Positions 17,907-40,509 of a stretch of DNA of 64,000 nucleotides are shown here, one piece after another. The stretch covers positions 360,192 to 424,191 of the forward strand of contig JADJPK010000008.1 in NCBI GenBank assembly GCA_016713305.1, in the 5' to 3' direction. The translations under genes were made by a program, and so were the position numbers. This DNA comes from Betaproteobacteria bacterium. Its GTDB lineage: Bacteria > Pseudomonadota > Gammaproteobacteria > Burkholderiales > Ga0077523. Each line of letters begins with the position of its first letter. The stretch's first letter is position 1. The notes under the pieces were generated by a model. It did no database searches. It saw only the letters and a program-made list of their open reading frames with translations, and was not told the origin of the DNA.

Positions 17907-17928
17907 GGAACGCCCGCTCCGGGTACCT

Positions 17929-21859: not shown

Positions 21860-23544
21860 GCGGCCGCTTCGGCCAGGGGGCAGGGACCAGCCTTCGGTTC
21901 CCCGCGATGCTGGACTTCCACTTCGCCGTTCTTGAGCCCCCGGTCTCCCACGGTGATCCGCAACGGAATGCCGGTGAGTTCCATGTCGGCGAACATCACG
22001 CCCGGCCGCTCGTCGCGGTCGTCCAGCAGCACCTCGATCCCCCGCGATTCCAGGTCGCCGTGGAGCTGGTCCGCCGCGGCCTTCACGGCCTCGCTCTTGC
22101 GGTAGCCGATGGCGACGATCGCCACGTGGAACGGCGCCATGGCGGACGGGAAGAGGATGCCGCGCTCGTCGTGGTTCTGCTCGATGGCCGCGGCCACGAT
22201 GCGTGAGACGCCGATGCCGTAGCAGCCCATCTCCATGGGGTGTGTCTGCCCGGCTTCGTCCAGGAAGGTGCAGGACATCGCCTGCGAATACTTGGTGCGG
22301 AGCTGGAACACGTGGCCCACTTCGATGCCGCGGCACAGCTCCAGCGTGCCCTGGCCGTCGGGGCTCGCATCGCCGTCCACGACGTTGCGGATGTCGAAGA
22401 CGTCCGCCGGAGCGGGCAGATCGCGTCCGAAGTTCACGCCGGTCAGGTGATAACCCGCCTCGTTGGCGCCGCAGGCGAAATTGCTCATCGCCGGCACCGA
22501 CCGGTCGGCGACGATCCGCACCGTTTCCGGCAGGCCGATGGGACCCAGATAGCCCGCGCGCGAACCGGTGTGACGGGCGATCTCTTCCTCGGTGGCGAAG
22601 CGGAACTCGCCCAGTCCGGGCACCTTGCCCAGCTTGACCTCGTTCAACTGATGATCGCCGCGCAGCAGCGCGACCACGAGGCGGTCGTCGTGCATCACCG
22701 CGATGGCCTTGAGAATGCGCTGCGGCCCCATCCCGAGGAAGGCGCCGACGTCCTCGATCGTCTTCTTCCCGGGCGTTTCCACCTTCGTCATGGGGTGCGC
22801 CGGTGCTGCGCGGTCATTCGCGGGGGCCACCGCTTCGGCCAGTTCCACGTTTGCCGCGTAGTCCGAGGAGGGGCAGAACGCGATGGCGTCCTCGCCCGAG
22901 TCGGCCAGCACGTGGAATTCGTGCGAGCCGGTCCCGCCGATCGCGCCGGTGTCCGCGGCCACGGCCCGGAACTTCAGGCCGAGCCGCGTGAAGATGCGCG
23001 AATAGGCGTCGTACATGTTGCGGTATTCGCGCTGCAGGTCCTCGAACGACGTGTGGAAGGAGTAGGCGTCCTTCATCACGAACTCCCGCGCGCGCATCAC
23101 GCCGAAACGGGGGCGGATCTCGTCGCGGAACTTGGTCTGGATCTGGTAGAAGTTGACGGGCAACTGGCGGTAGCTGCGGATCTCGCGGCGCGCGATGTCG
23201 GTGATCACTTCCTCGTGCGTCGGGCCGAAGCAGAAGTCGCGCTCGTGGCGGTCGCGGATCTTGAGCATCTGGGGTCCGAACACCTGCCAGCGGCCCGTCT
23301 CCTGCCACAGTTCCGCCGGCTGCACCGCGGGCATGAACAGCTCCACGGCGCCGGCGCGATTCATCTCCTCCCGCACGATCGCTTCCACCTTGCGCAGCAC
23401 GCGCAGCCCGAGCGGCATCCAGGTGTACAGGCCGCTGCCGAGCTTGCGGATGAGGCCGGCCCGGAGCATCAGCCGGTGGCTGACGAGTTCGGCTTCGGCG
23501 GGGGCTTCCTTGAGGGTGGACAGAAAGAACTGGGAGACTCGCAT
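21835..23544 (-). CDS. proS: Proline--tRNA ligase
   Basis: ATG at 23544. [46 protein letters not shown]..., 569 aa, class II aaRS motifs and the bacterial INS editing domain region. Confidence 0.96.
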
Positions 23545-23737
23545 TGGGCTTCGTTTGCTTGGAAAATGGGGATCCCGGTGCCTGGCGTGCCGCGGACCGG
23601 ATCGGATCGACTCGTGCGAGGCGCCGGTTGCCTGCCCGGTTACCGCGCGTCCTCTGTGTCGTGGTTCCCGTCCGACGGGCGGGTCGTCCACGTGCACGGC
23701 ACCGGTGAATTCCCAATTCTAGCGGCCATTCAATCCC

Positions 23738-24526
23738 ATGAGCTTGTTTTCCTCGCTGCGCGCGGGCAGATCGCGCAAGTCCGCCGACGAAGTGCACGTG
23801 AGCGAGAAGGGCGGCATCCGTTCCCTGCACCTGGGCAGCGACACCGTCCAGAGCTCCATGCGCATCGCCGCGCCGTTCGAGCTGGTGCTCTCGTACACAC
23901 GGGCGATGATGGGATTCCTCCTGTTCCATCCCGAGCCGCGACAGTTCCTGATGATCGGCCTGGGCGGCGGCTCGCTCGCCAAGTACGTGTGGCACCGTCT
24001 GCCGGAGGCGCGGACGACGGTGATCGAGAACAACGAGCGCATCATGGCAGCCGCCCGCAGCCAGTTCGCGCTGCCCGGCAACGACGAGCGCCTGCACGTC
24101 GAGCACGGCGACGGTGCCGAGTTCATCCGCGCCCATCCGGCCTTCTGCGACGTGCTGATGGTGGACGCCTACGACGCGAAGGCCCAGGTCGAGGCGCTGG
24201 CCACGGAGGACTTCTACTCCGAGTGCCGCAAGGCGCTCGAACCCGGCGGCGTGCTGGTGGTCAACCTGTGGAGTACCGATCCGCGCTTCGACACCTTCCT
24301 CCAGCGCATCGAACGGGTGTTCGACGCCCAGGTGGTGTGCCTGCCCGCGGAGAGGAAAGGCAACGTCGCGGTGTTCGCATTCGACCGCAGGGTTCCCGTC
24401 ACCCGCTGGGACCAATTGAAGGAAAGGGCGCGGACGCTCGAAGCCGCCACGGGACTCGAAATGCTCAAGTTCGTGGGCCGCCTGGGCGATCTCAATCCGC
24501 ACAGCGAGCACCGGCTGCTTCTGTGA
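23738..24526 (+). CDS. Spermidine synthase-like (PABS family) SAM-dependent methyltransferase-fold protein
   Basis: ...[17 protein letters not shown]... (GxGxG), ...VIENNERI...A...F and ...HGDGAEF......DVLMVDAYD... match the PABS fold. Confidence 0.8.
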
Positions 24527-24639
24527 TGGCAGCGCTTTCGTGCGGACGATCGCGACGCAGTGCAACATGGTGCGAGCGTTTCCCGCCGCGGTCTTTTGTG
24601 AAAGAATCCGACAGTGGGTTCAAACAATACAACCGGGTC

Positions 24640-25167
24640 ATGATCGATCGCGACGGCTACCGGCCCAACGTCGGCATCGTTCTGGTGAATGCGAGGAACG
24701 AGGTGTTCTGGGCCAAGCGGCTCAAGGAACACGCTTGGCAGTTCCCGCAGGGCGGCATCAAGCATGGTGAAACGCCCGAAGTCGCCATGTACCGCGAACT
24801 GCACGAGGAAGTGGGACTCGAGCCTGGGCACGTGGAGATGCTGGGACGTACGCGGGACTGGCTGCGCTACGACGTTCCGCGGCACTGGATCCGCCGCGAG
24901 CCCCGTCCGCACTACCGCGGCCAGAAACAGATCTGGTTCCTGCTGCGCCTGACCGGGCGCGACACCGACGTCTGCCTGCGCCGTACCGAGAAGCCGGAGT
25001 TCGATGCCTGGCGCTGGACCGGCTACTGGATCCCGCTGGATGCGGTGATCGACTTCAAGCGCGACGTCTACACGCGGGCGCTGTCCGAACTGTCCACCTA
25101 CCTGTCCCTTCACCCGGATCCTCACTGGCTCGAGAGCGCCACAGCCCCCGCAGCCCTGCAGAGCTGA
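24640..25167 (+). CDS. rppH: RNA pyrophosphohydrolase (Nudix)
   Basis: [17 protein letters not shown]...[28 protein letters not shown] is near-identical in pattern to E. coli RppH ([14 protein letters not shown]...[23 protein letters not shown]). ATG at 24640 within ORF 22240..25167. Confidence 0.95.
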
Positions 25168-25259
25168 CCGACGCAGTGCGCGCCGCCGGGGCCTGGTGAA
25201 ACCCGTGCCGCGTGAGGGCAGCCGCCTTCACCCGTGCAGGCGGCCGACCACCGCGCCCA

Positions 25260-25685
25260 TCAGGCGGCTTTCACTTCCTCCAGATCCGCCGTCAGTTTGC
25301 CGCCGTCCTCCAGCAGCACGATGAACAGCTCGCCGCGAAGCTTCCAGGCCGCGGCGACGTCCCGGAGGATCTCGACCACCGTGTGAAGCGCATCAGGGTC
25401 CCGATCCGCCAGGGGGTGCACGGACGAGAGCCGGAGGATCACGCCGCCGGGACCGGGCGGGTTCTCCAGCAGGCATTCCTCCAGCGCGTCCCAGTTGTGG
25501 CCGAACCAGTTGGGGAATTCGAAGATGCGGGCGAACGCCTGCAGAAGCTCGGACTTGTCGGCCGGGCCGGACAGCTGGATCAGCCGGGGTGGTTCTGAAG
25601 AGGTGGGGGGGATCGTCACGTCATGCCCCACATGCCGGTAGACGCCGCCGGAACGCGTCGCGATGATGTCACCGAGAGTTCTCAT
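25260..25685 (-). CDS. Barstar family ribonuclease inhibitor
   Basis: ...ELLQAFARIFEFPNWFGHNWDALEECL...GGVILRL... matches the barstar core (F.FP.YFG.N.DAL.DCL). It is located 55 nt downstream of the RNase gene. Confidence 0.85.
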   Translation of the reverse strand: MRTLGDIIATRSGGVYRHVGHDVTIPPTSSEPPRLIQLSGPADKSELLQAFARIFEFPNWFGHNWDALEECLLENPPGPGGVILRLSSVHPLADRDPDALHTVVEILRDVAAAWKLRGELFIVLLEDGGKLTADLEEVKAA

Positions 25686-25740
25686 GCTGACCTCCTTGCG
25701 CTGCGGGACTTCCGGGCCGGAACCGCGCCTGCCGCGACCG

Positions 25741-26115
25741 TCACGGCTGCCGCTCCACGATGCGGAAGAACGTCGAGTAGTGGTCGGGTGTCCAGTAGGC
25801 GTCGACTCCGCCGCCGGTCACGATGCGCCGCGCGCCCCTGTCCCGGCTCCCCGGCGTCGGCACGGTGTATTCCCGGTAGTGGCCGCGCGGCCGGGGCGGC
25901 AACAGCCGTTCGCGGTTCGAGAATACGCTGCCGTCCTTGGCGTAGGGATACGGTCCGCCTCGGCGGATGAGGGCGAGCGTCGCGCGGCCTTCCGGCGGCA
26001 GCTCTGCCTCCGAGATCTGCAGCAGCGGCAACGGGCGGGCCAGCGCGGGCTCGGCCCCCGCGAACGTCAGGATCGCGGCGAGGACGATCCACCCCAGACG
26101 GAAGAGTCGCAGCAC
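25741..26115 (-). CDS. Secreted guanyl-specific ribonuclease (barnase/RNase Sa, N1/T1 superfamily)
   Basis: GTG at 26115. Signal peptide MLRLFRLGWIVLAAILTFAGAEPALA. ...GGPYPYAKDGSVFSNRERLLP....YREYTVPTPG..DRGARRIV.......YWTPDHYSTFFRI holds the catalytic E/R/H context of microbial RNases. Confidence 0.88.
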   Translation of the reverse strand: MLRLFRLGWIVLAAILTFAGAEPALARPLPLLQISEAELPPEGRATLALIRRGGPYPYAKDGSVFSNRERLLPPRPRGHYREYTVPTPGSRDRGARRIVTGGGVDAYWTPDHYSTFFRIVERQP

Positions 26116-26121
26116 GGCGGA

Positions 26122-27126
26122 TTACCGGGCGGTGTCCAGCACGATCTTGCCGATGTGCGTGCTCGACTCCATGAGCGCGTGCGCGCGCACCGCATCGGCC
26201 AGGGGAAACACCTGGTGAATGACCGGCTTGATGGTTTTCGCCTCGATGAGTGGCCACACCTTCTCGCGCAGGGCACGGCCGACCTCGGTCTTGTACTCCA
26301 CCGAGCGCGGCCGCAGCGTGGAACCGGTGATGGTGAGGCGCCGGTAGAGGATGTCGCCCATGTCGAAGGCTGCCTTGCTCCCGCCCAGGAACGCGATGAT
26401 GGACAGGCGGCCGTCGGCGGCCAGGCATTTCAGCTCGCGCCCCACGTAATCGCCCGCGACCATGTCCAGAATCACGTCGACACCCTTGCCTGCGGTCAGT
26501 TCCTTGACCACCGCCACGAAGTCCTCCTCGCGGTAGTTGATGCCGCGTTCCGCGCCGAGCGCTTCGCAGGCCCGGCACTTCTGCGCGCTGCCGGCGGTCA
26601 CGAACACACGGTGGCCGAAGGCGCGCGCCATCTGGATGGCCGTGACTCCGATGCCGCTGGAACCGCCCTGCACGAGCAGGGTCTCGCCCGGTGCCAGCCG
26701 GCCTCGGTCGAACACGTTGATCCACACCGTGAAGAACGTCTCCGGCAGCGAGGCTGCCTCGATCATGGTAAGTCCGGCAGGCACCGGCAGACACTGGCCG
26801 GCGGGAGTCGTGCAGTACCGGGCATAGCCTCCGCCGGGCGTGAGCGCGCACACGGCATCCCCCACTTGCCATTGCGTGACGCCTTCGCCCAGACCGACCA
26901 CCGTTCCGGCGACCTCGAGCCCGGGCAGATCCGACACCCCGGGGGGCAGGGGGTAGAGTCCCATCCGCTGCAGGACATCGGGCCGGTTCACGCCCGCGGC
27001 CGCGACGTCGATGAGCACCTCGCCTGGACGCGGGACGGGGAGCGGCCGCCGCACGTATCGAAGCACCTCGGGACCGCCGGGCTGGGCGATCTCCACCGCC
27101 CCCATGTCACTGGGTAGTGCCGCCAT
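26122..27126 (-). CDS. NAD(P)H:quinone oxidoreductase (zinc-independent MDR, PIG3/Qor family)
   Basis: ATG at 27126 after RBS gaaggag. ...GEVLIDVAAAGVNRPDVLQRMGLYP.PPG.SD.PGLEVAG.V... and ...LVQGGSSGIGVTAIQ.A...G... support the call. Confidence 0.9.
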   Translation of the reverse strand: MAALPSDMGAVEIAQPGGPEVLRYVRRPLPVPRPGEVLIDVAAAGVNRPDVLQRMGLYPLPPGVSDLPGLEVAGTVVGLGEGVTQWQVGDAVCALTPGGGYARYCTTPAGQCLPVPAGLTMIEAASLPETFFTVWINVFDRGRLAPGETLLVQGGSSGIGVTAIQMARAFGHRVFVTAGSAQKCRACEALGAERGINYREEDFVAVVKELTAGKGVDVILDMVAGDYVGRELKCLAADGRLSIIAFLGGSKAAFDMGDILYRRLTITGSTLRPRSVEYKTEVGRALREKVWPLIEAKTIKPVIHQVFPLADAVRAHALMESSTHIGKIVLDTAR

Positions 27127-27301
27127 GAATCGACTCCTTCGTGATCCGCGCGGAGCCGACGCGTGCGCCTGCACACGTTCCGGACCGGACGGTCGAGGGC
27201 CCATTGTATCGGCGCGACCCGCCCGTCCGGTGCCTCTCGTGACCGGCGGTTTGCGCGCGCGCGGACTGCCGGTTCCTTGCGGAGGAGGGAGGTGCCGGCG
27301 C

Positions 27302-29083
27302 TCAGGCCGGCAGCCTCCCCTGCGCCTCTTCGACCAGCGCCATGAGCTCGCTGCGTCGTCGCTGGTGCTCCTCGGATCCGGCGTGGCTGTAGTTGAGATT
27401 GAGAAGAAGATGGGTGAAGCGGTCGAACAATGTCTGCGCCTCGGCCTTGCCGGACACCGCGTAGCGTGGTGCGACGACATCCCGCAGCAGCAGCAGCGCG
27501 TCCTTCTGCCGTTCGAGCGCCGTGGAGACATCCACGGGGTCGTAGGCGTTCTGCTGCAGGAATACGGCATCCACCAGACGAGCCTTGAGGTGCGCCACGA
27601 AATCGTCGAGGCTCACGCCTTCCTCACCGGTGACGTGCATCATCTGTTCGATGTCGTGTCCCTGGCGCAGCAGATCGAGCATCACCGCGACGGCGGCGAT
27701 CCAGTCGGGCCCCATCTGCTCGCGCCGCCACCGCTCGAGCTGTTCGGTTGTCCGGGACCACGACAGCAGCGGATCCACCGCAGGGTAGAAGCGGCGGTAG
27801 GCGCGCTCGGCGGAAAGACCCAGGAACGTCTTCACCGTGGCGAGCGTGGCTTGCGTCACCGGTTCGTCGAAATTTCCACCGGCCGGCGAGACCGTTCCGA
27901 TCATCGTCACGCTCCCCTCGGTTCCATCCTGCCGGCGAACGATGCCTGCACGCTCGTACAGCGCGCGAACGGCCGAATCGAGGTAGGCAGGAAACGCTTC
28001 ATCCCCCGGGATCTCTTCCAGCAGTCCGGAGATCTCCCGCAGCGCCTGCGCCCAGCGGGAGGTGGAATCAGCGATCACCAGTGCGTTCAGGCCCATGTGC
28101 CGGTAGTACTCGGCGATCGTGACACCGAGATACAGCGACGATTCGCGCGCCGCGACAGGCATGGAGGAGGTATTGCAGATGAGCACCGTCCTTTCCATGA
28201 GCGTGCCGCCGGTCCTGGGATCCGGCAACCGCGGAAGCTCCGTGATCGTCTCCACGACTTCCCCGGCGCGCTCGCCGCAGGCGACGATCACGACCACGTC
28301 GGCCGCCGCGTAGCGCGATCAGATTCTGCAGCACGGTCTTGCCCGCGCCGAACGGCCCCGGAATGCAGGCGGTGCCCCGGCGCGATGGGAAAGAACTGTC
28401 GATGAGACGCATCGTCGTGACCAGGGGCCGCTCCGGGAGATTCTTTCGGCGGTTCCGGCCGGAAGCATGGGCGCCCGAAGGACGGCGGATCGGCCAGCGC
28501 TTGGCCAGGAGATTTCCCGGCGCTGTTCTCCATCCGCTTCCAGCACCGCGACGATGTCCGCGACGCGCACGCGTCCGCCGCCAAGCGTTGCGACACGCAT
28601 CGGTCTGGCGAGATCGGTCGGTGCAAAGATGTGGTGGCGCACATGACCTTCCTGCACGTGGCCGATCGTCTCTCCTGCCCGGATGGTCGCGCCCGCCGCT
28701 ACGGCCGGCTCGAAATGCCACAGGCGGTCCGCGTCCAGTGCGTCGGCCCGGGCACCGCGCTCCAGGAAGTTGCCGTGGTGCGCGCTCAGGACGTCGAGCG
28801 GATTCTGCAGGCCGTCGTAGACCTGGCCCAGCAGGCCTGGACCGAGCGTGGCCGACAGCAGTTCACCGGTCAGGTCGACCGCCATGCCGACGCGAATACC
28901 GCGTGTGTCCTCGAAGACCTGCAGATCGGCCGTCGCGCCGCGCACTCGCAGCACTTCGGCCTGCAGCCGGCGGCCGCCCACGTGAATGTAGGCCACTTCG
29001 TTCTTGATCACGCGCCCCTCGCCGGCCCGGATCCGGACGAGCGCCTCCTTCACGCCCGTCACCACTGCCTGTGCCCCGATCAC
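27302..29083 (-). pseudogene. V/A-type ATPase catalytic subunit A, disrupted by two frameshifts
   Basis: The GTG at 29083 overlaps the upstream stop (GTGA). The N-terminus (…LQAEVLRVRGATADLQVFEDTRGI..G..V..TGELLSATLGPGLLGQVYDGLQNPL) is in the frame of ORF 28319..29374. The Walker-A segment (RWPIRRP...PLVTTMRLIDSSFPSRRGTACIPGPFGAGKTVLQNLIA) is only in the frame of ORF 28068..28721. The remainder (RYAAADVVVIVACGERAGEV...NTSSMPVAARESS...) returns to the first frame (ORF 27302..28297), passing an in-frame TGA at 28319-28321. The shifts are at about 28505-28515 and about 28316-28326. Confidence 0.88.
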
Positions 29084-29759
29084 GCGTACGGCCCCAGGTG
29101 TCCGGCGATCGTGCGTGCGATCTCCCGCTCCAGACGTGCAGCCGCTCGTCCTTCGTCCTGGCGAAGCCACCGGTCGGCGATGTCCCACTTGAACAGGTAG
29201 ACGAGAACTGCGTCGAATGCGAAGGCATGATCCATGGGCAGGGAACCCAGGTGGTCCCAGACCAGCCCCATCAGCAGCCCTTTCCAGCGCCGCGGTGTCG
29301 TTCGCTTCAAGCAGGGCGCGCGTGTGGAACCCAGGGAAACCACGCTTCGAGCCTGTGGTTGCGTTCGGTCGCATGCCTTGCCGCGTAGGCCGTCCATGCA
29401 GGCACGCCCCACTCCGGGCCCGGCATTGCCTGTCCAGAGCACTGCCGCCTGAGCGCGGCCATCACCGTGCGGATGGCGAGCCGGAATTCGGCGAACGAAC
29501 AGAGCAGGCCCGAGGGATGCCGTGCACGCAACTCACGGAAATGCGACAGCACTGCTTCGTCCGTGTTGTCCGCGGGCTGCCGCTGCCATGCCAGAAAATC
29601 CAGTGCGGACTCGGTCACGGCCCGATCGTCGGGATGCAGCAGCGTCAGCCGGTCGCGCAGTCGATCTGCGGAAATCGGCAGGCGAACCAGCGTGTCGAAC
29701 CGGGCGAGGTGAGGCAGGCTGGCCACCAGCAAGTAGTACTGGCGCTGCGCGGTGGTCAT
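29080..29759 (-). pseudogene. DUF2764 family protein (subunit-C-like component of Bacteroidetes-type V-ATPase operons), disrupted by two frameshifts
   Basis: ATG at 29759 (ATGA overlap with the subunit E stop). The N-terminus MTTAQRQYYLLVASLPHL is DUF2764-like. A sensible sequence has to be read in three frames: ...HATERNHRLEAWFP | GFHTRALLEANDTAALER | WKGLLMGLVWDHLGSLPMDHAFAFDAVLVYLFKWDIADRW...GPYA*. The shifts are at about 29330-29340 and about 29278-29286. The length of 680 nt is not a multiple of 3. Confidence 0.7.
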
Positions 29760-30412
29760 GGGCGGGCGTCCTCCTGCAGGAGCGAACGGTATCGGGGCAG
29801 CAGCCGGTCGAGGAGCATCGCCGCGACCGAGTCGGGCGAGATGTCCACCTCCACAGTTCCCGCCTCGAGGCGCACGCGCACTCCGGCGGAGTTGCTGCGC
29901 GCCACCTGCATCTCGATGCCGCAGGTCAGGAGTTCCACGACCAGCGCGCTTACGTGGGCGTCGAGAACGTCCGGTGCCGACGGCTCGGGATCGCTGTGCG
30001 GTCCGGCGAGCTCGATGCCCACCGCGCCCCGAAGGCCGCAGGCGATCGCGCTCCGCGCGACTTCGTCGACGATGCCTGCGAGGGCATCCCGCTGCTCGAG
30101 GCGTTCCTTCACGAGTCTGCGGACCAATTGCCCGAACAGCGCCTCCAGATCCTGGCGGAGTTGCAGCAGCGCATCCCGATGCGCAAGGCGAACGGCTTCG
30201 CGGGCCGAGCGGCGGTCAGCATCCGCCTGGACGCGTGCTGCCGCGACGATCTCCGCGGCTTGCGCACGAGCCGAGTCCAGCAGCATCGCGGCCTCGCTCT
30301 GGGCCCGCGAAACGATGCGGGCCTGCTCCTTCTCGCCGCGCTCGACGCCTTCCTCGTGCAGGCGCCGGATCAGTTCCTCGACGCCACTTTGCCGTGCGCG
30401 CGCGTCAGCCAC
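29756..30412 (-). CDS. V/A-type ATPase subunit E (intact)
   Basis: GTG at 30412 (GTGGCTGA overlap with the subunit K stop). 218 aa with a charged coiled-coil N-terminus (EELIRRLHEEGVERGEKEQARIVSRAQSEAAMLLDSARAQAAEIV...) and a globular C-terminus, typical of subunit E. Confidence 0.75.
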   Translation of the reverse strand: MADARARQSGVEELIRRLHEEGVERGEKEQARIVSRAQSEAAMLLDSARAQAAEIVAAARVQADADRRSAREAVRLAHRDALLQLRQDLEALFGQLVRRLVKERLEQRDALAGIVDEVARSAIACGLRGAVGIELAGPHSDPEPSAPDVLDAHVSALVVELLTCGIEMQVARSNSAGVRVRLEAGTVEVDISPDSVAAMLLDRLLPRYRSLLQEDARP

Positions 30413-30857
30413 GGCCGATGCCCTGGATGAGCACCAGCGCGAAGGCCAGGGCGAACACGGCGAATCCCTCGACGAAGGCGGCAGGGGCCACTGACAGACC
30501 GAAGACTTCGGGTTTGCTCTTCGACACCTGGATGGCCGACGCACAGCAGTTGCCCTGCTGGACGGCGCTGACCATCTGGGCCAGGCCCGACAGCACGCCG
30601 ATGACGAACAACGCCGTCCCGTTCCCGGCGGTGACCGGCCGCTGTAGCGCGAGCATCACCACGATGCCGTAGATCGCCTGCGACGCGGGCATCGCAGCGA
30701 TGCCGATGAACCGGCCATGGCCGGATTCCGTCTCGAGGAGCGCCCCACAGGCTGCCTGCCCGGCTCGCGCACAACCGAGGATGCTGCCGATGGCAGCCAG
30801 CACCATCGCGCCGTAGATTCCGGTCCAGCCCATCGTCAGTGTCAGGATGTCCGCCAT
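30405..30857 (-). CDS. V/A-type ATPase proteolipid subunit K (intact, 4-TM duplicated hairpin)
   Basis: 150 aa. MADILTLTMGWTGIYGAMVLAAIGSILGCARAG... and ...VAPAAFVEGFAVFALAFALVLI. There is a single carboxylate (E) in the last helix, and a Gln (PASQAIYG) at the equivalent site of the first hairpin. Confidence 0.85.
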   Translation of the reverse strand: MADILTLTMGWTGIYGAMVLAAIGSILGCARAGQAACGALLETESGHGRFIGIAAMPASQAIYGIVVMLALQRPVTAGNGTALFVIGVLSGLAQMVSAVQQGNCCASAIQVSKSKPEVFGLSVAPAAFVEGFAVFALAFALVLIQGIGRG

Positions 30858-32589
30858 GGCTCACTCTCCGTTCTCGCGAATGCCCGGAACGGTCGACCTT
30901 CGCTCCAGACGGCCCAGTTGAAGAATTCGATGAAGTTGAGTCTCAGGCCGTGGACGATGCCGCCCGCGACGCCGAGAACCAGGTTGAGTCCGTGCCCGAC
31001 GATCGCGATGATCCCGGCGAGAATCGGCCCTGCCGCTCCTGCGGTGCCGGACACGCCCGCTGCGAGATCGTTGAAGGCTGCGCCCAGCGATGCACCGGCG
31101 AACCCGAGCGCGAAGAGGCGGAGGTAGCTCAACGTGTCTCCGAGCGCACCCACCACACGCGTGACGCCCAGCAGACCGTCCACGAGCCGATGGCGCCAGT
31201 CGGCCGAGTCGCCGGCCGTGAGAAGCACGGTGGCGAGTCCGAAGACGATGGTCAGCGTCCCGGCTGGCTTCAATGCATCGACGGACATGCCACGGCCGGC
31301 CCACATGACGGCCGCACCCAGAAAGACGAGCACCCAGCCGATGGCGGTTCGACCTGCGGGTTGGCCCCGGCGGTGCCAGGCCACCATGACGTTGGCGGTC
31401 ACGAGGTGCACGATGCCCAGGCAAAGCGAGATGACCAGCAACGTGCCGGCGTCGCCCGCGTCCACGGCGACGAGCCTCGCCGTCCAGGTTCCGGGCGCCG
31501 GCGAGCTTCCGAACCAGCTGCCTACGGCCACACCCCAGACGAACGAAACCCCTGTCGCGAGCGCTGCCAGTGAGCGCAGCCGCCGTCCCGATTCCGTGCG
31601 TCCGATCCGGCGCCACAGCACCGCCAGCAGTCCGGCGAGTAACAGCCCATAGCCTGCATCCGACAGGATCATGGCGAAGAACAGCGCGAAGGCGCCGGCT
31701 ACGAATGCGCTCGGGTCCCAGCCGCCATAGCCGGGAACCAGATAGAAACCGGTGAGATCGCGGCCTGCCGCCAGAACACCCCGGGAATCGAGCAGTGTCG
31801 GCGGATCGTCTTCCGCAGTTGCCGGAGCGGTCGTGAGGGCGAATCCATGGCGCTGCGCGCAATCATGCAGAGCCCCAGCAGCGGTCCGCGGCGCCCATCC
31901 GCGCAGGGCGAACACGGCCGGGGTCACCCTGCCGGCATCGTTCAAGGCCGCGCGGTCCTCCAGGCGTATTACGTTCAACCGGTTGAGTTCCTCCAGCCAC
32001 CGCGCAGCGCGGCGCGCTCGATCGAGATCCTCGATCTCATCCTCCGGCGCTCCAGTTCCTCTTCGAGCCGGGCAGGGACCTGGCGCCAGCGTGCGTACGC
32101 TCGCCGGGAATGCCCCGCGGCTCCTCGGCCGAACGACGACGCTCACGAAGTCAATGGTCTCGATAGACCACCGCCACGGCTCGCTGCGGATTCCAGGCCG
32201 TCGAGCATGTGCGGGGACGATGTAGAACCACAGGCGCAAGTCGCCGGATGCGCTGCGCGGTCGGGCGCTGAAGTCTCCCCAGGCGCCAGGTCCCGGATCC
32301 GGCAGCGCAGGCCTTGACGCTCGTCAGCGAGCCTCTGCAGCCGCGCCTGATCTCCAGCGCCCGGGCCACTGACGTCGGCGGCGAAATCTCTGGCCGGCGG
32401 TGACCAGGCTCGCGCGGAGGAACGCAGGGCCTCGGACGCGCCCTCTGTTGTCCACCCGCTGCACGACCTCGGCCGCGCCGAGCTGACTCAGATGAAGGCA
32501 GCCCAGACGTCCTGCAGCTCCGTCAGGGGATCGGGCTTGTCGCGCAACAGCCTGCGTCGTACTGCGACCTTCAGCGGAACGATGCTCAT
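30842..32589 (-). pseudogene. V/A-type ATPase subunit I (a-subunit), N-terminal third disrupted by multiple frameshifts
   Basis: ATG at 32589 (ATGA overlap with the subunit D stop). MSIVPLKVAV...ELQDVWAAFI runs into TGA at 32488-32490. Plausible sequence then continues in other frames (HLSQLGAAEVV...; ...GDQARLQRLADERQGLRCRIRDL...; ...AYARWRQVPARLEEELERR | EDEIEDLDRARRAARWLEELNRL...). From about 32040 downstream the membrane domain is one intact frame ending ...GLRLNFIEFFNWAVWSEGRPFRAF...*. There are at least 5 frame changes, and 1748 nt is not a multiple of 3. Confidence 0.75.
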
Positions 32590-33184
32590 GGCCAGCTGGC
32601 CTTCTCGCCGGGACGACTCCGCGCCTTGGCGATCTTGGCCCGCACCATCGCGACGCGCTCCGCGTCGCCAAGCGCAATCTTGATCCGCCGGATGTCCGCG
32701 CGCCTGCGAGGATCAGCACCCCCTTGAGCAGGTTCGCCCTCTGGATGCGCGGCCGAGGGCTGCGGTGAGTCGCGACGCGCTCCGTCCGGACGGCCGCGAC
32801 CTCCGGTCCATCAATCGCTGAGCTCTGTCCGATGTGTTATCCACCCAGTGCGGCCGGGCCAGCATGCCATAGTCCAGACCCGCGTGTGCACCGGTCGGCG
32901 GCAGCCGGGGCAGCAGCGTGCCGAGCAGGTCCACTCCGTGCCCCACGCGCTGACCCGGACCAGGTTGTCCAGCGTGATCTCTTCGTTGGCCATCATCGGC
33001 ACCGCGGAGGCCGCCACTGCTGCGAGGGCTCGGCGCCGATCCAGGAGCGCCCCGAGCGCCCTGCGCTCCGAGGCCAGCTCCGTGGCGAGCTGCCGCCGCT
33101 TGAGATCCAGGGAAGGCAACGCGGGCGGTAGAGCAAGTCGCGCCGGCGCCGGAGCGAGCCCTTCTTGAGCGCCAGATCACGCAT
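32586..33184 (-). pseudogene. V/A-type ATPase subunit D, disrupted by about four frameshifts
   Basis: ATG at 33184 (MRDLALKKGSLRRRRDLLYR). Recognisable D sequence is then read successively in different frames: LPSLDLKRRQLATELASERRAL...EEITLDNLVRVS | GHGVDLLGTLLPRLPP...YGMLARPHWVDNTSDRAQRL | ...IQRANLLKGVLI | PRRRADIRRIKIALGDAERVAMVRAKIAKA...WP*. The shifts are near 33118, 32948, 32745 and 32710. Each step is +1 in frame, consistent with four 1-nt losses (599+4=603). Confidence 0.72.
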
Positions 33185-34524
33185 CCCCCGGCGCTCCCTC
33201 GCGGCGGCAGATCGGGCCGAGGACTTGTCGATGAGCGACTGCCGGATGCCGATCTGCTGCGGTTCGAAGCACTCTGCCAGCGTCTGCCAGCAGCGATCGA
33301 GTGCCGCTTCCAGCCCCATCGCGGCATCGATGCGCATGAAGCGGTCGCGGAACATGCGCCCGAACGCCAGCAGCTGCCGGTCGAACGCCGACAGCTCGAA
33401 TGCCATGGCGCGCTTGCGCTCCGCGTCCTCGGCCGCGGCGTAGAGACGGATCATCGCGTTTGCCACCTGACCATGATCGTCGCGCGTCACCTTGTCACGA
33501 CGTGCTTCAGGCCGCGACAGCGAGCCGAACGGATCGAGGACGCCGCCATGCAGGTAGTACTGCCCTCGGTGATGTAGCCGGTGTTATCCGGCACCGGGTG
33601 GGTGACATCGTGGCCCGGCATGGTGGTCACGGAAAGGATCGTCACCGAACCCGCATCGCGGAACTGGCAGGCTTTCTCGTATCGCCGCGCCAGACGCGAA
33701 TACAGATCGCCGAGGTAGCCTCGGTTGGACGGCACGCGCTCCATGGTGATGGCAATCTCCTTCATCGCGTCCGCGTAGGCCGTCATGTCGGTGAGCAGCA
33801 CCAGGACCCGGCGGCCCCGGATGGCGAAGTTCTCGGCCACGGCCAGCGCCATGTCGGGGACCAGCAGGCGTTCGACGATGGGGTCGGACGCGAGATTGAC
33901 GAACATCACGGTGCGCGAGAGCACACCGCGGTCATCGAACGCCATTCGGAACACGTGGAAATCGTCGAAGGAAAGCCCCATCCCCCCGAAGACGACGACG
34001 TCGGCGTCCGCCTGGAAGCCGACACGGGCCAGCAGCGCGTTGTACGGCTCGCCCGGCACGGAAGATGGAGATCTTCTGGCTCTCGACGAGGCTGTTGAAC
34101 ACGTCGATCATCGGAATGTCGGTGCGGATCATCCTCTGAGGCACGCGCCGCATGACCGGGTTCACCGACGGGCCGTCGATGGCGATCTCCGGCTGGTCGC
34201 CCAGACCGGGGCCGCCGTCCCTGGGGACGCCCGTTCCTCCGAACACGCGTCCGAGGATGTGCTCCGAGAAGCGTGCCTTCAGCGGCGAGCCGGTGAATCG
34301 CACGCCCGCCGCGGTGGATAGACCGCGGGTGCCCTCGAACACCTGCAGCGTGACGATGTCGCCGTCCAGTTCGATCGCACGGGCGAGCGAGCTCGCCCCG
34401 TCGGGATTCTCGATGATCGCCAGTTCGTCGATGGCCCGCCGGGCGCCCGCACGCGCACGATGTCTCCCACGATGTCGCGCAGGCCGCGGAAGACGAGGGG
34501 GCTGGACGCCGACATGCGATTCAC
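33177..34524 (-). pseudogene. V/A-type ATPase subunit B, disrupted by four frameshifts
   Basis: The GTG at 34524 overlaps the TonB-like stop (GTGA); an alternative ATG is at 34515. The pieces are MSASSPLVFRGLRDIVGDIVRVRAPG | AIDELAIIENPDG...LQVFEGTRGLS...[24 protein letters not shown] | [14 protein letters not shown]...[50 protein letters not shown]...[13 protein letters not shown]...[13 protein letters not shown] | [17 protein letters not shown]...[18 protein letters not shown]...ERRG | DA*. The shifts are near 34440 (-1), 34065 (-2), 33565 (-1) and in the C5/G5 run 33185-33189 (-1). 1348+5=1353 nt restores a 451-codon frame ending at TGA 33177-33179. Confidence 0.85.
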
Positions 34525-35222
34525 CCGGTCCTGCGTGACTGCAGCCGCAGAACGACCGGCTGAGGCATGCTTTCGGGAGGGACGTCCTGCATCGGCGGCA
34601 GCGATTCGAGCGCGCGCTCGATTCGTCGGTCCAGATCGGCGTCGCCGGTGTTCTGGCGGAAACGAAGCCGCGAAAGCCGGCCGTCCTTCGCGATCCAGAC
34701 GCTGACCACCGCACGGAACTCCTCCTTCCGTAGATCGGGCAGCGACATCAGCTCATCCGTCAGGAAGCGCTCGAGCTGCGACGTGTACGAGGCATATTCC
34801 AGCAGGGGATTGAGGCGACCCGATCGGCTCTTGTCGTCCAGGTTCTCGCCGATGGTGGTGATGTCTCTCCCACCGCGCCGGGCCGCCAGGCCGAACGAAT
34901 CACCGACCGCGCCGCCTTCCTCGTTCACGCCGAGCTGGTCGCCGGGCGCGGGCGCTTCCTGGGGTGCGTCGCTGGGACTCTGGACGATCTTCTCGACGTC
35001 CTCCTCTTCCACCTCGGCCGGCTTTTCCGGCTCCGGCTCCTTCGGCTTGGGCGGAGTCCGCTCCGGGTTCAGCAAGGCCACGCGCTGCGCGGAGGACCGC
35101 TTCTGCGTCTGATCGCCCAGCAGGAGGTCCCGTCCGTAGACCGCCGCCAGGGCTACCGCCGCGACGACCCCGGCGCGAAGCGCGAGCCGCCAGGGCCGCC
35201 CGAGCGGATGAGCCTCATCCAC
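34521..35222 (-). CDS. TonB-like energy transducer (N-terminal anchor, Pro/Glu/Lys-rich spacer, TonB_C-like domain)
   Basis: TM segment LALRAGVVAAVALAAVYG. The spacer reads PERTPPKPKEPEPEKPAEVEEEDVEK. The C-terminus ...EEFRAVVSVWIAKDGRLSRLRFRQNTGDADLDRRIERALESLPPM...VVLRL resembles the TonB C-terminal fold pattern. GTG start at 35222. Confidence 0.7.
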   Translation of the reverse strand: MDEAHPLGRPWRLALRAGVVAAVALAAVYGRDLLLGDQTQKRSSAQRVALLNPERTPPKPKEPEPEKPAEVEEEDVEKIVQSPSDAPQEAPAPGDQLGVNEEGGAVGDSFGLAARRGGRDITTIGENLDDKSRSGRLNPLLEYASYTSQLERFLTDELMSLPDLRKEEFRAVVSVWIAKDGRLSRLRFRQNTGDADLDRRIERALESLPPMQDVPPESMPQPVVLRLQSRRTG

Positions 35223-35249
35223 GGGACCGCTCCGTCGCGGCGGGCCGCT

Positions 35250-35654
35250 TCATTTCACGAGCGCCTGCGTGACCAGGCCGAGCTGGGTGATCTGCAACCG
35301 TTTCATCACGTCCAGGACTTCGATCACGCGCTGATACTGGATCTGCGCATCGCCCTTCACCACGACGGGCAGCGTCGGATCGGCGGCACGAAACTGGCGA
35401 AGCTTGTCCTCCAGTTCGGCCACCGTGACCACGGCCGTGTCGAGGTATATCCGTCCGTCGGCCGTGATGGTCACGGCCTTGGTGCGGGGCTTTGCGATGG
35501 AGGGCGCCGCACTGGCCTTGGGCAGCGTCACGGATATGCCCTGAACGGTCGCCGTAGCCATCACGATGAAGATGATGAGCAGGTTCCAGGCGAGATCCAT
35601 GAGCGGGGTCAGATTCAGCTCGTCGTAGATCTTGTTGTCGTGGCCGAAACGCAT
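35250..35654 (-). CDS. exbD: ExbD/TolR family biopolymer transport protein
   Basis: 134 aa. ...ELNLTPLMDLAWNLLIIFIVMAT...VTLPKA...ITADGRIYLD...PVVVKGDAQIQYQRVIEVLDVMK..I matches the canonical ExbD/TolR layout. Confidence 0.9.
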   Translation of the reverse strand: MRFGHDNKIYDELNLTPLMDLAWNLLIIFIVMATATVQGISVTLPKASAAPSIAKPRTKAVTITADGRIYLDTAVVTVAELEDKLRQFRAADPTLPVVVKGDAQIQYQRVIEVLDVMKRLQITQLGLVTQALVK

Positions 35655-35663
35655 GGCGCCTCC

Positions 35664-37487
35664 TTATGCCTTCCGGTAGCTGCGCGCAATGCGGCTGAGC
35701 AGCTCGTTGCTGAACAGTTCCATCGCCGTCGTGAGGGCGCGGATCCGCAGTGCCAGAAAGTTGTACGCGAACATCACGGGGATCGCCACGACGAGACCCG
35801 CCACCGTCGTCGTGATCGCCGCAGCGACTCCGGGTGCGATGGTGTTGACGTTCACGTCGCCCTGCATGGCGATGGTCGCGAAGGTGACCATGATGCCCAC
35901 CACGGTTCCGAGCAGCCCCAGGAACGGAGCGCCGCTGACGGAGAGCGTGAGCATCACCATGTTCTTGTTCATCCGGTTCGCCTCCTCGACCATGGCGGAG
36001 TCGATGGCCGCCTTCACCACATCCATGTCGGAAGCGTCCATGCCGGCGTGAGCAGGTGACTCGGCCGCCAGCGACTTGCGGACTTCACCGATGGCTGCGG
36101 CATACATGCGGAACAGGCTCGAGTCCCGGAGAACGCCGCCTGCTTTCGGCGTCGAATCCGCGGAGGAGGGATCGCTGCCCGCCAGCGCGGCCAGATCGCC
36201 CTGCAGATCGCGAAACCTGCCGAGAAATCCGGCATTGGCGTTCTCCATGCGCCGCAGCAGTCGAGCCTTGACGATGATCGCCTCCGTGCTGAGGAAGCCC
36301 AGAATCACGATGAGGCCGATGATCACCCAAGCGTCACGGCTCACCGCGCCGGCCAGGACGCGCAGCAACGCCAGATACTGCCCTCCGTCTGCCTGTGCCT
36401 CGTCCTGACCGTATTCCACGATCCGCGCGTCCGGCCCGTGGCCGAGCGCCGCGAGCCGGATCCAATCCTTGCTGCGGGCAGTCCTGGAAAATTGCAGTTC
36501 GTCGAGATCGCCGGAGAAGCCCGGTATCTCCGCAATGGCGCCCACGGTAACGGGTCCCGCCAGCTCGGGGAGCTTTGCCGCCACGGCTGCCACTTCCTCT
36601 CCATCGACGTAAACCGTGAGCCGGTCCGATGCGGTCACCGCCACGTGGTGCCAGGTTCCCGGCGAGAGGCGGTCGATCGACGGCGTTTCGATCTGCGAAC
36701 CCGGAGCACGGATGCGGGCCTGAAGGGACGCGCCCTTGACGTCGATCACGAATTCGCCGTCGTTTCCCGCGAGAGTGAGAAGACGCCCGCCGCCATCCAG
36801 CGTGGAAGTCTTGATCCACGCGGTGATGGAAAGCGCGCCGCCTGCCGCAACCTTCAAGGCAGGCTTTGCCGGGACCGTGAACGAGGAGGTGGCGGCAAAG
36901 CGCAGCGCATGATCGATGGCGCCCTCCGCGATCGAGGCTGCGGAAGAGTTCTGCGCGCCGTTCTGGTAGGCGGTGGAATCGACCGGTGCGGACTCGTTCT
37001 GCGCGAAGTGGTACGCGGCAGTCTGCGCGTCGTCGAAAGTGCCCGCCGCGTCCGCCCCGGCGGGCGCGTTCGGATTTCCGTAGTAGAGCCACACGACGTC
37101 GTTGTCCGTCTTCTGGTGCAGCCTGGGCACACGCACCCAGACGAGCGCAATGCCGTTCAGTCCGTCGAAGCGCTCCACATGGAACTTGAGAGGTGTCTTG
37201 TCGTCGCCGGCGACAAAACGGAGATCCTCGCCGTTCTCCTTGGCGTCGACGAACGGAAAGTTGCCTGTGTGCAGACGCACGAGCACAGGCGCCTCGTCCA
37301 CGGGCCCGGAGAGCGCCGCGCCGTCACGCGCGGTGTGAAGCGTGATCTTCTTGCGATACGACCAGTCCGCATTCCACCATGCGAAGGCGGAGACCGGCGC
37401 CAGCATCGAGACCGTGGCGACCAACGCGAGAATTGCCACCAGTACAGACGTCCAGCGTGAATTCGTCGGGGTTCGTGCGAGACTCAT
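35664..37487 (-). CDS. DUF2341 + LamG/concanavalin-like periplasmic domain fused to a MotA/TolQ/ExbB proton-channel domain
   Basis: ATG at 37487, 607 aa, with a signal/anchor segment. WWNADWSYRKKITL...DLRFV..D..T.L.FHVE.FD......VWVRVP is DUF2341-like. ...DLDELQFSRTARSKDW is a LamG-like ending. The C-terminus ...MLTLSVSGAPFLGLLGTVVGIM.TF......GDVN...IAPGVAAAITTTVAGLVVAIP..FAYNFL is the ExbB/TolQ signature. Confidence 0.88.
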   Translation of the reverse strand: MSLARTPTNSRWTSVLVAILALVATVSMLAPVSAFAWWNADWSYRKKITLHTARDGAALSGPVDEAPVLVRLHTGNFPFVDAKENGEDLRFVAGDDKTPLKFHVERFDGLNGIALVWVRVPRLHQKTDNDVVWLYYGNPNAPAGADAAGTFDDAQTAAYHFAQNESAPVDSTAYQNGAQNSSAASIAEGAIDHALRFAATSSFTVPAKPALKVAAGGALSITAWIKTSTLDGGGRLLTLAGNDGEFVIDVKGASLQARIRAPGSQIETPSIDRLSPGTWHHVAVTASDRLTVYVDGEEVAAVAAKLPELAGPVTVGAIAEIPGFSGDLDELQFSRTARSKDWIRLAALGHGPDARIVEYGQDEAQADGGQYLALLRVLAGAVSRDAWVIIGLIVILGFLSTEAIIVKARLLRRMENANAGFLGRFRDLQGDLAALAGSDPSSADSTPKAGGVLRDSSLFRMYAAAIGEVRKSLAAESPAHAGMDASDMDVVKAAIDSAMVEEANRMNKNMVMLTLSVSGAPFLGLLGTVVGIMVTFATIAMQGDVNVNTIAPGVAAAITTTVAGLVVAIPVMFAYNFLALRIRALTTAMELFSNELLSRIARSYRKA

Positions 37488-37782
37488 GGAGTCGTCCTCG
37501 GGCGGGGCGAACGTTCGTTCAGGGATGGGTCCGGTGCGTCGATTGCAGATCAATTCTGTGGATGGAATGACATCCGGATTTGCGCTGCGTCAAGACAACT
37601 GCACGCTTGGCCAAGCGGCGTATGGGAAATGTCGATAGGGTGACACCGCGCTCCCATGAGAATGGTCTGTACGGATCAAGTGGGGCGCACGGGACTGTCA
37701 CACGTGTGCGGACCGGTCGGAGATGAAGGGTCGCAAGCGCCTGAGGACCGCAACGATGAGTGCGTCAGGGAACGGAAATCCG

Positions 37783-37796
37783 TTGACTTTGGTCAA
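37783..37796. promoter_or_regulatory. FNR/Dnr/FixK-type box candidate (TTGAC-N4-GTCAA)
   Basis: Perfect inverted repeat TTGACTTTGGTCAA (fits TTGA-N6-TCAA), centred ~87 nt upstream of the ATG at 37877 that leads the DUF2934/NTF2-like/NnrU genes. Confidence 0.4.
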
Positions 37797-37876
37797 TTCC
37801 AGGATCGTTGCGAGCCGTGAAACTTGCGCCCGCGCTCGATCCTGCGCACCGATCAAATGCAACCTGGAGGCGACAA

Positions 37877-38968
37877 ATGACTGACGAAAAATTTCATCGC
37901 ATTCGCGAGATGGCCTATCGGATCTGGATGGACGAGGGCTGCCCTCACGGACGCGACATGGACCATTGGCTGCGCGCCCAGTACGCCGTGGACAGCATCG
38001 GCTCCGAATCGCCCTACGCGACGTCGACGTCGGTGACGGAAGTCCTCATTGGCGCGGAAGAAGCGGCGGAGGAGCGGACGAGGGTGGCGTTGGCGCGCCC
38101 CGGTCCGAAGACCACTGCGCGTAAGCGCGCATCCGGTTCGTCCCCGCGACGAACTGACCTCGCAGAGGCGCGGATCTCCCCCTGCGTGTCCGCATGCGGG
38201 AGGTCTGCCGCTGCCTTTCGTCCAGGAGGTCCGGTGCCGGACGTCGGCCCCTGTGAATACTCGCTCGGGCGTCCCGCCGACAGGGCTTCACCGGTCCTCA
38301 CCGCAGCGCCGCCGCTCCGAGAACGGGGCGCCGCCGGCGTGGGCCGGCTCGGCGAAATTTGCATCCCACCCTTGTGGTCCGTCTTGTCATCGCGCCATTC
38401 CGGCTGCCACGCGATCCGTGTACATTCCCCGGACCGGCCCTGGAGTACGGGCCGGCCACTCGTCCTCGCGGAGATGTTCCATGACGCTGCTGACCACTCT
38501 GAAAGATGTCTTCCGCCCACCGATTCTCCCGGCCGTGCAGCCAGGCACCGGTGTGCAGGTGTGCTTCGGCACGGTCACGGTGGAGGAGGCGCTCGCGGCG
38601 GAAGCCGCGCGATACGACGCCCAGACCGCCAACGATTTCGCCGCCATGGAGCGCCTGTTCGGAGACGACCTCGTGTATGTCCACTCGAGCACGAACGTGG
38701 ACACCAAGGCGAGCTTCATCGAATCCATGCGCTCGGGCGCTGTTCGCTATCGCCGCATGACACTGGGCGACGTCACGGTGCGAATCTATGGCGGTGTGGC
38801 GATCGTCTCGGGTGCCGCGAACTTCGATGTGACGGCCAACGGGCAGGAACTGTCGCTCTCTCTCATGTTTCACAGCATCTGGGCCCAGCGTCCCGCCGGC
38901 CTGCAGTTCGTGTCCTGGCAGGCGACCCGTCTTCCCGCCAGGGCGTGAGACCGCCATGGCCTGGCTGA
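37877..38968 (+). CDS. DUF2934 domain protein; 3' extent doubtful
   Basis: ATG at 37877 after RBS ggagg. MTDEKFHRIREMAYRIWMDEGCPHGRDMDHWLRAQ is a classic DUF2934 motif. Only about the first 110 codons look protein-like, yet no stop occurs in this frame until 38968, so the ORF would fully overlap the next gene in another frame. Confidence 0.45.
   Translation: MTDEKFHRIREMAYRIWMDEGCPHGRDMDHWLRAQYAVDSIGSESPYATSTSVTEVLIGAEEAAEERTRVALARPGPKTTARKRASGSSPRRTDLAEARISPCVSACGRSAAAFRPGGPVPDVGPCEYSLGRPADRASPVLTAAPPLRERGAAGVGRLGEICIPPLWSVLSSRHSGCHAIRVHSPDRPWSTGRPLVLAEMFHDAADHSERCLPPTDSPGRAARHRCAGVLRHGHGGGGARGGSRAIRRPDRQRFRRHGAPVRRRPRVCPLEHERGHQGELHRIHALGRCSLSPHDTGRRHGANLWRCGDRLGCRELRCDGQRAGTVALSHVSQHLGPASRRPAVRVLAGDPSSRQGVRPPWPG
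38481..38948 (+). CDS. NTF2-like/SnoaL-like (DUF4440-type) protein
   Basis: ATG at 38481 in ORF 38049..38948. ...AEAARYDAQTANDFAAMERLFGDDLVYVHSSTNVDTKASFIESMRSGAVRY......V.IYGGVAIVSG......ANGQE....L.F...W is the typical DUF4440 pattern. Confidence 0.75.
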   Translation: MTLLTTLKDVFRPPILPAVQPGTGVQVCFGTVTVEEALAAEAARYDAQTANDFAAMERLFGDDLVYVHSSTNVDTKASFIESMRSGAVRYRRMTLGDVTVRIYGGVAIVSGAANFDVTANGQELSLSLMFHSIWAQRPAGLQFVSWQATRLPARA

Positions 38969-39534: not shown

Positions 39535-39603
39535 CCGTCCGGGCGTGAGGCCCGCCGCGCGGACGCGCGGCACGGCGGTGGGAAAGTCCGGGGACTGGTT
39601 TCG

Positions 39604-40355: not shown

Positions 40356-40509
40356 CCGGCGTGAGCCCCCTGCCGGCTGCTCGGGACATCGCGCTGCGAA
40401 GGAGAGTCTTGCCGGACGGGCAATTGCATCGTGCCCCGGTGGCCAGCCGTCCCGGTGGGTCGAGCGTCGATCGGTCATGCCTTCCTCCTTGACCCGATCA
40501 GCATAACGC

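Follow-up and report, generated by a model that had tools for sequence, protein, structure and literature searches.

Clustered frameshifts in a V/A-ATPase operon of a Betaproteobacteria MAG are very probably consensus errors

The window analysed here is a stretch of 64,000 nucleotides on a 503,274-nt contig, whose proteins (locus-tag prefix IPK20) are deposited as MBK8017313-328 under the name 'MAG: Betaproteobacteria bacterium'. At its centre lie seven V/A-ATPase genes (Table 1). The catalytic subunits A and B, with their ATP-synt_ab domains, and the rotor and stator subunits D, I, and K were all recovered, which identifies the set as that of a V/A-type ATPase; the fragments of subunit A matched PF02874, PF16886, PF00006, and PF22919. 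The genes of such a set are uninterrupted in the related contigs L081, L090, L097, and L112, whereas in the window they are not.

Table 1. Coordinates of the V/A-ATPase genes and associated features in the window.
Feature	Position	Strand	Description
V/A-ATPase genes (n = 7)	27302-34515	minus	Order B-D-I-K-E-DUF2764-A
Subunit B	33177..34515	minus	6 small deletions; PF00006 on fragment
Subunit D	32586..33184	minus	At least 7 frame changes
Subunit I	30842..32589	minus	PF01496 on C-terminal fragment
Subunit K (c-ring proteolipid)	30405..30857	minus	Intact; PF00137; MBK8017318.1
Subunit E-like, 218 aa	29756..30412	minus	Open ORF; MBK8017317.1
DUF2764 subunit	29080..29759	minus	2 uncompensated shifts: 29316 (-2), 29278 (+1)
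Subunit A	27302..29083	minus	8 deletions around the Walker A region; remainder clean
exbB-like (DUF2341 + LamG + MotA_ExbB), exbD, tonB_2	34521..37553	minus	Identified by Pfam; no indels
9.77-kb island	27256..37025		Most of exbB, exbD, tonB, and the whole ATPase operon
Worst zone	31860..33260		About 20 frame changes (D and I N-terminus, 1.4 kb); 10-23% mismatch to every reference haplotype

Indels were called by aligning the window's DNA with near-identical contigs in which the genes are intact, combined with frameshift-aware protein-to-DNA alignment; the frame maps from a crude GC3 frame HMM were only rough, and the homologue alignments were used in their place. At least 37 small indels were found in the 7.2 kb of V/A-ATPase genes, this being a minimum total. 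An earlier sequence-only reading had counted about 17 disruptions. All 17 of its positions proved to be real frame changes, and its subunit assignments and frame joins agree with the alignments to intact homologues, but its count was too low. The concentration in the V-ATPase genes that it described was also borne out, with 5.1 indels per kb in the operon; the same comparison over 38 kb of flank gave 0.16 per kb, and the enrichment is thus 33-fold (binomial P = 5e-24).

For subunit A, the eight deletions remove 9 nt (28508, 28480, 28476, 28438, 28397, 28380, 28379, and 28313 x2), and their net effect is a frame change at 28509 and another at 28316. Both of these changes had been noted earlier, and the eight deletions lie in between. 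The in-frame TGA proposed at 28319-28321, on the other hand, is an out-of-frame reading of CTGATC and not a nonsense substitution. The gene is unbroken at 602 aa in L090.

For subunit B, the deletions lie at 34437 (-1), 34061 (-2), 33566 (-1), 33506 (-2), 33492 (-1), and about 33190 (-1), and those at 33506 and 33492 form a compensated pair that had been overlooked. The protein is uninterrupted over at least 317-319 aa in L081 and L082, and its C-terminal 298 aa are whole in L112.

For subunit D, at least five net changes (33123, 32926, 32798, 32712, and 32617) and a short compensated pair at about 32780-32750 were observed, and the protein aligns over its full length after frame correction. 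This gene has a mosaic structure, in which blocks matching L097 at 100% identity alternate with others from a divergent allele. A whole 204-aa D (PF01813) is encoded in L097 and L112, and PF01813 was also found on the D orthologue P0001. For subunit I, at least 12 frame changes fall between 32510 and 32045, within the N-terminal 660 nt, and none in the C-terminal part (31925-30842); both L097 and L112 encode an unbroken protein of 593 aa. The DUF2764 subunit is whole at 226 aa in L090, L091, L092, and L112.

The short E and K genes had both been taken as uninterrupted. This holds for K, whose exact protein occurs in seven independent contigs. The E ORF is likewise open, but it contains a compensated -1/+1 pair (30397/30390) that changes three residues, and no assembly other than the source MAG (MBK8017317.1) was found to have this exact sequence.

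The events resolved at the DNA level comprise 16 deletions and 2 insertions, located at short homopolymers, at GC/TC dinucleotide repeats, and at non-repeat sites. They are strongly clustered: eight are packed into 196 nt of subunit A (28313-28508; P about 1e-6), and three indel-free intervals (1528, 1008, and 769 nt) would arise with probabilities of 4e-4, 6e-3, and 2e-2, respectively, under a uniform rate. In the worst zone, where the mismatch was taken from a 100-nt profile against L112, the window aligns at 75% identity and needs 15 gap openings in 239 columns, whereas the references differ from each other by about 6% without gaps. Basecalling error at a methylation motif was also considered and is unsupported, as the deletion sites have no common motif.

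In contigs 94-99% identical to the window, drawn from Logan, ENA, and NCBI metagenome assemblies, every subunit is uninterrupted (B, at least 319 aa; D, 204 aa; I, 593 aa; E, 218 aa; DUF2764, 226 aa; A, 602 aa; and K). Intact orthologues, the closest of them 99% identical, come from about a dozen independent assemblies, and these contigs are apparently of short-read origin. For each indel of the window, all covering contigs agree on the same resolution, and none of them carries the indel. Of the interrupted ORFs, three fragments (in A, I, and B) were absent from the searched collection, and two scans of JGI metagenomes with patterns accepting the intact or the deleted form at 28380 and 34437 gave no match. 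Furthermore, L097 and L112 differ by 6.4% but align over 2678 nt with 0 gaps, and L113 and L091 differ by 6.2%, again with 0 gaps, whereas some 80 gap openings appear when the window is aligned to either. The orthologous locus of near-identical strains, a comparison that the sequence-only reading had proposed, therefore carries intact ORFs and favours poor consensus.

Outside the divergent block, 24 of the 29 substitutions private to the window in the V-ATPase genes are synonymous (83%, compared to a neutral expectation of 29%; P = 2.3e-9). This bias indicates that selection is still acting on these genes. No in-frame stops are left in their frame-corrected alignments. In bacterial mutation spectra, indels and substitutions stand at roughly 1:5-1:10; the window, with its indels set against only about five private non-synonymous changes, lies far above this ratio.

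The three upstream genes, exbB-like, exbD, and tonB, are free of indels in comparison with up to nine contigs, as had been claimed, and the segment 37055-34525 has zero gaps against nine contigs. The accompanying claim that the flanking genes are intact is thus correct for the immediate flanks but not farther out. Frameshift-type indels were found there at 38141 and 38177 (3' end of a DUF2934 gene), at 45512 in a PAS-GGDEF-EAL gene, at 53399 in a 531-aa gene upstream of moxR, and at 63769/63805 at the start of an adh_short gene. These slips (C5 to C4, C6 to C5, G5 to G4, CC to CCC, and a GC-repeat -2) coincide with short base runs and GC repeats or adjoin them.

The island is missing in the sister strains (L103, L098-L100, L105, and L106), which have 154 nt in its place and retain a truncated 157-aa DUF2341 gene. 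Since these strains have deleted it outright, the island is dispensable, and real decay is biologically plausible. Subunit D and the N-terminus of I belong to a strongly divergent allele that was seen nowhere else. The search with D returned no close relative of this allele (best match P0001, 66% identical), so that the indel positions inside 33260-31930 are approximate and the substitution counts come from outside this interval; a codon-position analysis of the zone did not separate divergent allele from noise. The conserved DYGMLARPHWVD motif nevertheless argues that a real allele underlies it. As an observation in its own right, the presence of the island varies among strains and the alleles of the D/I N-terminus diverge sharply, which is real biology of modest interest.

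Of the two explanations offered by the sequence-only reading, locally poor consensus quality is supported and very recent inactivation is not. Pseudogenisation would mean that dozens of small deletions arose after selection on the dispensable island was lost. The confinement of the disruptions to one functional unit fits this, as does the loss of all 9.77 kb of the island in sister strains, where a truncated exbB-like gene is left. We consider it improbable, because the synonymous bias is the opposite of relaxed selection, no nonsense codon is left once the frames are corrected, no indel is common to any other assembly, and exbB, exbD, and tonB of the same dispensable island are untouched; the extreme clustering in subunit A and the excess of indels over non-synonymous changes also count against it. 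That the indels are real, in an activated-sludge strain at the first stage of losing its V-ATPase island, is very improbable, and so, jointly with it, is the route this would take, a burst of clustered small deletions ahead of substitutional decay. Programmed recoding, in which ribosomal frameshifting or transcriptional slippage would restore the proteins, can draw on the preserved amino-acid motifs and nothing more; it is effectively refuted by the at least 37 sites without a common slippery motif, the mixture of -1, -2, and +1 changes, and the near-identical strains that make the same proteins shift-free.

A further explanation, itself a sub-type of artefact, is that co-occurring V-ATPase haplotypes (85-99% identical) were merged into a chimera, giving rise to both the indels and the mosaic in a sequence that belongs to no single organism. 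Collapsed alleles are known to yield apparent frameshifts, for which PMC8445201 provides a precedent. The blocks at 33452-33222 and 33101-32948, which are 100% identical to L097, alternate with blocks of about 70-80% identity, and a population bubble would also account for the ends, at 33565 and 32180, of contigs from other samples. However, the eight deletions in A sit where the known haplotypes hardly differ, and the exbB-tonB segment is multi-allelic (96-99%) yet indel-free. Such a merger is thus possible, though we would not expect it.

The frameshifts are very probably consensus errors in a long-read MAG, neither mutations of the organism nor a real biological feature, and the V/A-ATPase operon is in all likelihood functional in the population. 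This explanation rests on the intact near-identical orthologues, gapless natural divergence, synonymous bias, absence of residual stops, deletion-biased and clustered indels, and slips in the flanks.

For the 27.3-34.4 kb segment, the assembly probably drew on few long reads, from a minority haplotype; the absence of the island in the sisters, the contig breaks at 34437, and the unique D/I allele make this plausible. L083 and L086 break at 34437, the position of the first indel, although this second breakpoint is suggestive only. Short-read polishing would then have mended only the parts coverable by abundant relatives, leaving behind raw-quality, deletion-rich patches of consensus. Low abundance of the haplotype would probably explain this presumed low coverage and failure of polishing. 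Low coverage of the whole island is too simple an account, however, since its exbB-exbD-tonB part is error-free, and the patch in A is little polymorphic among the references, so that failed read recruitment is not obviously the cause there.

The protein MBK8002123.1, from the same accession block as those of the window, is attributed to Singleton et al. 2021 (PMC10448046). This proximity suggests, but does not prove, that the window comes from their Nanopore-plus-Illumina activated-sludge study. Its pipeline is described as CANU on Nanopore reads, Racon, medaka twice, and one Illumina Racon round with --include-unpolished, and this probable source study itself states an indel caveat (PMC8012365).

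Gaps in the accession numbering imply that GenBank gives no A, B, or D protein for this MAG, so that gene-loss or pathway inference would wrongly score its V-ATPase as inactivated. The main value of the locus is a caution for gene-loss calls from a MAG: residual long-read errors can accumulate in strain-variable islands and mimic targeted pseudogenisation.

Among known systems, the subunit set and order, including DUF2764, are as in L001, L005, L008, and L035, the four loci in which the order was read among 80 related loci fetched from Myxococcota, Gammaproteobacteria, Cyanobacteria, Gemmatimonadota, and other MAGs. The operon differs from such loci in that the nearest subunit A in GTDB representative genomes is just 66% identical, and exbB-exbD-tonB lies directly upstream in only one of them, L035 (a Bradyrhizobium MAG). 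As a synteny control the 80 distant loci were unusable, having no flanks in common with the window except in L035.

Decaying operons, such as the pseudogene clusters of reductive genomes like that of Mycobacterium leprae, show relaxed selection, nonsense mutations, and disruptions common to relatives. The window resembles them in that frameshifts are numerous in a single functional gene cluster and loss of that cluster is tolerated, but it shows none of these three hallmarks.

The resemblance to the indel errors of long-read (Nanopore) assemblies and MAGs lies in small, deletion-biased indels that split conserved genes, in leftover homopolymer slips elsewhere on the contig, and in errors that persist where polishing reads are scarce. 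Such gene-fragmenting indels are addressed in the proovframe preprint (10.1101/2021.08.23.457338), Kastor (PMC12007338), and Sereika et al. 2022 (PMC9262707). Unlike errors spread evenly, those of the window reach 33-fold over the contig background in a single operon, at a strain-variable island.

Searches for exact copies of the window's intact ExbD and K proteins retrieved 16 contigs (Logan, ENA and NCBI metagenome assemblies) with 94–99% identity to the window; two more, L097 and L112, came from additional searches. In the near-identical contigs, all of the V-ATPase subunits are uninterrupted: B, D (204 aa), I (593 aa), K, E (218 aa), DUF2764 (226 aa) and A (602 aa). The indels were placed by DNA alignment and by a purpose-written frameshift-aware protein-to-DNA alignment, as tabulated below. 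Alignments of both kinds to the intact contigs confirmed every disruption listed in the sequence-only reading; its total of 17 was too low, the true minimum being 37 indels. The TGA at 28319–28321, taken there as in-frame, is an out-of-frame reading and not a nonsense mutation. The comparison with the orthologous locus in close relatives that it had proposed yielded intact genes without the window's indels.

Genes and frame-disrupting events in the window
Feature	Position	Strand	Detail
exbB-like gene	35664-37553	minus	DUF2341, LamG and MotA_ExbB domains
exbD	35250-35654	minus	
tonB_2 gene	34521-35222	minus	
V/A-type ATPase operon	34515-27302	minus	order B-D-I-K-E-DUF2764-A
B indels	34437 (-1), 34061 (-2), 33566 (-1), 33506 (-2), 33492 (-1), about 33190 (-1)		6 events
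D indels	33123, 32926, 32798, pair near 32780-32750, 32712, 32617		at least 7 events
I indels	between 32510 and 32045		at least 12 events
E indels	30397 (-1), 30390 (+1)		2 events, compensated
DUF2764 indels	29316 (-2), 29278 (+1)		2 events
A indels	between 28508 and 28313		8 events (9 nt)
Flank event	38141		C5 to C4; with 38177, alters end of DUF2934 gene
Flank event	38177		C6 to C5; with 38141, alters end of DUF2934 gene
Flank event	45512		G5 to G4; splits PAS-GGDEF-EAL gene
Flank event	53399		CC to CCC; fuses 531-aa gene to moxR, giving apparent 862-aa ORF
Flank events	63769 (-2), 63805 (+1)		start of adh_short gene

Over 38.4 kb of flank (5145–7120, 16081–27255, 34525–46301 and 50524–64000) compared with equally close contigs, six frameshift-type events were found, in addition to a few in-frame or intergenic polymorphisms. 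Because the indel rate is 5.1 per kb in the operon versus 0.16 per kb in the flanks (ratio 33; binomial P = 5e-24), the concentration of indels in the operon, as originally noted, is real. The accompanying description of the flanking genes as intact holds for the immediate neighbours and fails farther out, where the six events lie. The single-base run changes at 38141, 38177, 45512 and 53399 are probably background long-read errors. In two places (29316/29278 in DUF2764 and 63769/63805 at the start of adh_short), a GC repeat has lost 2 nt and a 1-nt gain lies 36–38 nt further on; this recurring signature may be an artefact of polishing or alignment.

None of the window's V-ATPase indels is shared by any covering contig, and each site is resolved alike by all contigs; the window's E variant is known from the source MAG alone. 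Natural divergence in the V-ATPase genes yields no indels: L097 and L112 differ by 6.4% with 0 gaps over 2678 nt, and another pair of contigs, L113 and L091, by 6.2%, again with 0 gaps. In contrast, the window shows about 80 gap openings against either reference, and its I N-terminus has 15 gap openings in 239 alignment columns at 75% identity. Substitutions outside the divergent block were counted as private to the window where it differs from a base shared by all references, of which at least two had to be available. Of these, 24 of 29 are synonymous, compared to 27–31% expected for random changes (P = 2.3e-9), indicating that purifying selection acted on the lineage essentially until it was sampled. 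As read off the difference lists, such substitutions seem about as frequent in the operon as in the flanks.

Once the frames are corrected, none of the seven genes contains an in-frame stop codon. The DNA-level events are deletion-biased (16 deletions versus 2 insertions), and their spacing is far from Poisson, with 8 of them crowded into 196 nt of the A gene, which is 1.8 kb long (P about 1e-6), and event-free stretches of 1528, 1008 and 769 nt in the operon. With typical bacterial mutation spectra, a neutral process that produced at least 37 indels would be expected to leave at least about a hundred substitutions, along with several nonsense codons. The unshared indels, the gap-free divergence, the synonymous bias, the absence of stops, and the spectrum and clustering of the events therefore all point to error. 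These five lines of evidence favour locally poor consensus, one of the two alternatives raised from the sequence, over very recent inactivation of the operon. The indel cluster is very probably a familiar type of assembly artefact, and it is quite improbable that some or all of the operon indels are real.

In the worst zone (33260–31860), blocks of the window that are 100% identical to L097 alternate with blocks of a strongly divergent allele, a pattern that could stem from recombination or from chimeric polishing. Over D and the I N-terminus, this allele is approximately 25–30% divergent from four reference haplotypes, which are themselves about 6% apart. The family-conserved DYGMLARPHWVD motif that it carries, where L097 has RYSLLARPHWVD, argues that the allele is genuine. 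Contigs from other samples break at about 33565 and 32180, flanking this zone.

The simplest reading of why the errors fall in the ATPase segment is that this segment would derive from a minority haplotype that only a few long reads covered, that short reads of more abundant relatives would have polished only the mappable segments, and that patches without polishing would have remained in the consensus. Two features fit this minority-haplotype reading poorly: the references show no polymorphism where the A patch sits, and the exbB–tonB segment is multi-allelic yet clean.

The window's proteins are in GenBank as MBK8017313, 314, 317, 318, 320, 321, 324 and 328 ('MAG: Betaproteobacteria bacterium'; locus tag IPK20, 503,274-nt contig), and gaps in the accession numbering imply that A, B and D were given no protein record. 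Another protein from this accession block, MBK8002123.1, has been assigned to the activated-sludge MAGs of Singleton et al., 2021 (PMC10448046), and the shared block suggests that the window's MAG likely belongs to that study. There, Nanopore reads were assembled with CANU (corMinCoverage=0) and polished with Racon, twice with medaka, and then once with Illumina reads via Racon --include-unpolished (Singleton et al., 2021).

In the near-identical sister strains L103, L098–L100, L105 and L106, window positions 27256–37025 (9.77 kb), comprising most of the exbB-like gene, exbD, tonB_2 and the whole V-ATPase operon, are missing altogether. These strains have 154 unrelated nt in place of this island and still carry a DUF2341 gene shortened to 157 aa, which looks like a deletion polymorphism within an activated-sludge population. 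Position 34437, where the first V-ATPase indel lies, is also exactly where two independent contigs (L083 and L086) end or diverge, which hints at a further structural variant with exbB–tonB but without the ATPase. The 108-nt tail of L083 (2300–2407) has no match in the window or among the fetched loci, and the contig may be chimeric or may carry another structural variant. Just downstream of the island, at 25260–26115, an adjacent pair encodes a barnase-like ribonuclease (124 aa) and a barstar (141 aa), next to a zinc-type quinone oxidoreductase.

The window has a GC content of about 68%, and no tRNA or Rfam matches were found in it. The exbB-like gene encodes a protein with a DUF2341 domain, a LamG/ConA-like domain and a MotA_ExbB channel. 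Of 80 related V-ATPase loci fetched from many phyla, the best subunit A match is only 66% identical to that of the window. The subunit order was read in four of them (L001, L005, L008 and L035), and all four match B-D-I-K-E-DUF2764-A. Among the related loci, only L035, from a Bradyrhizobium MAG, shares with the window an exbB-exbD-tonB_2 trio directly upstream of the V-ATPase (L035 817–3758), with an ExbD 75% identical to the window's.
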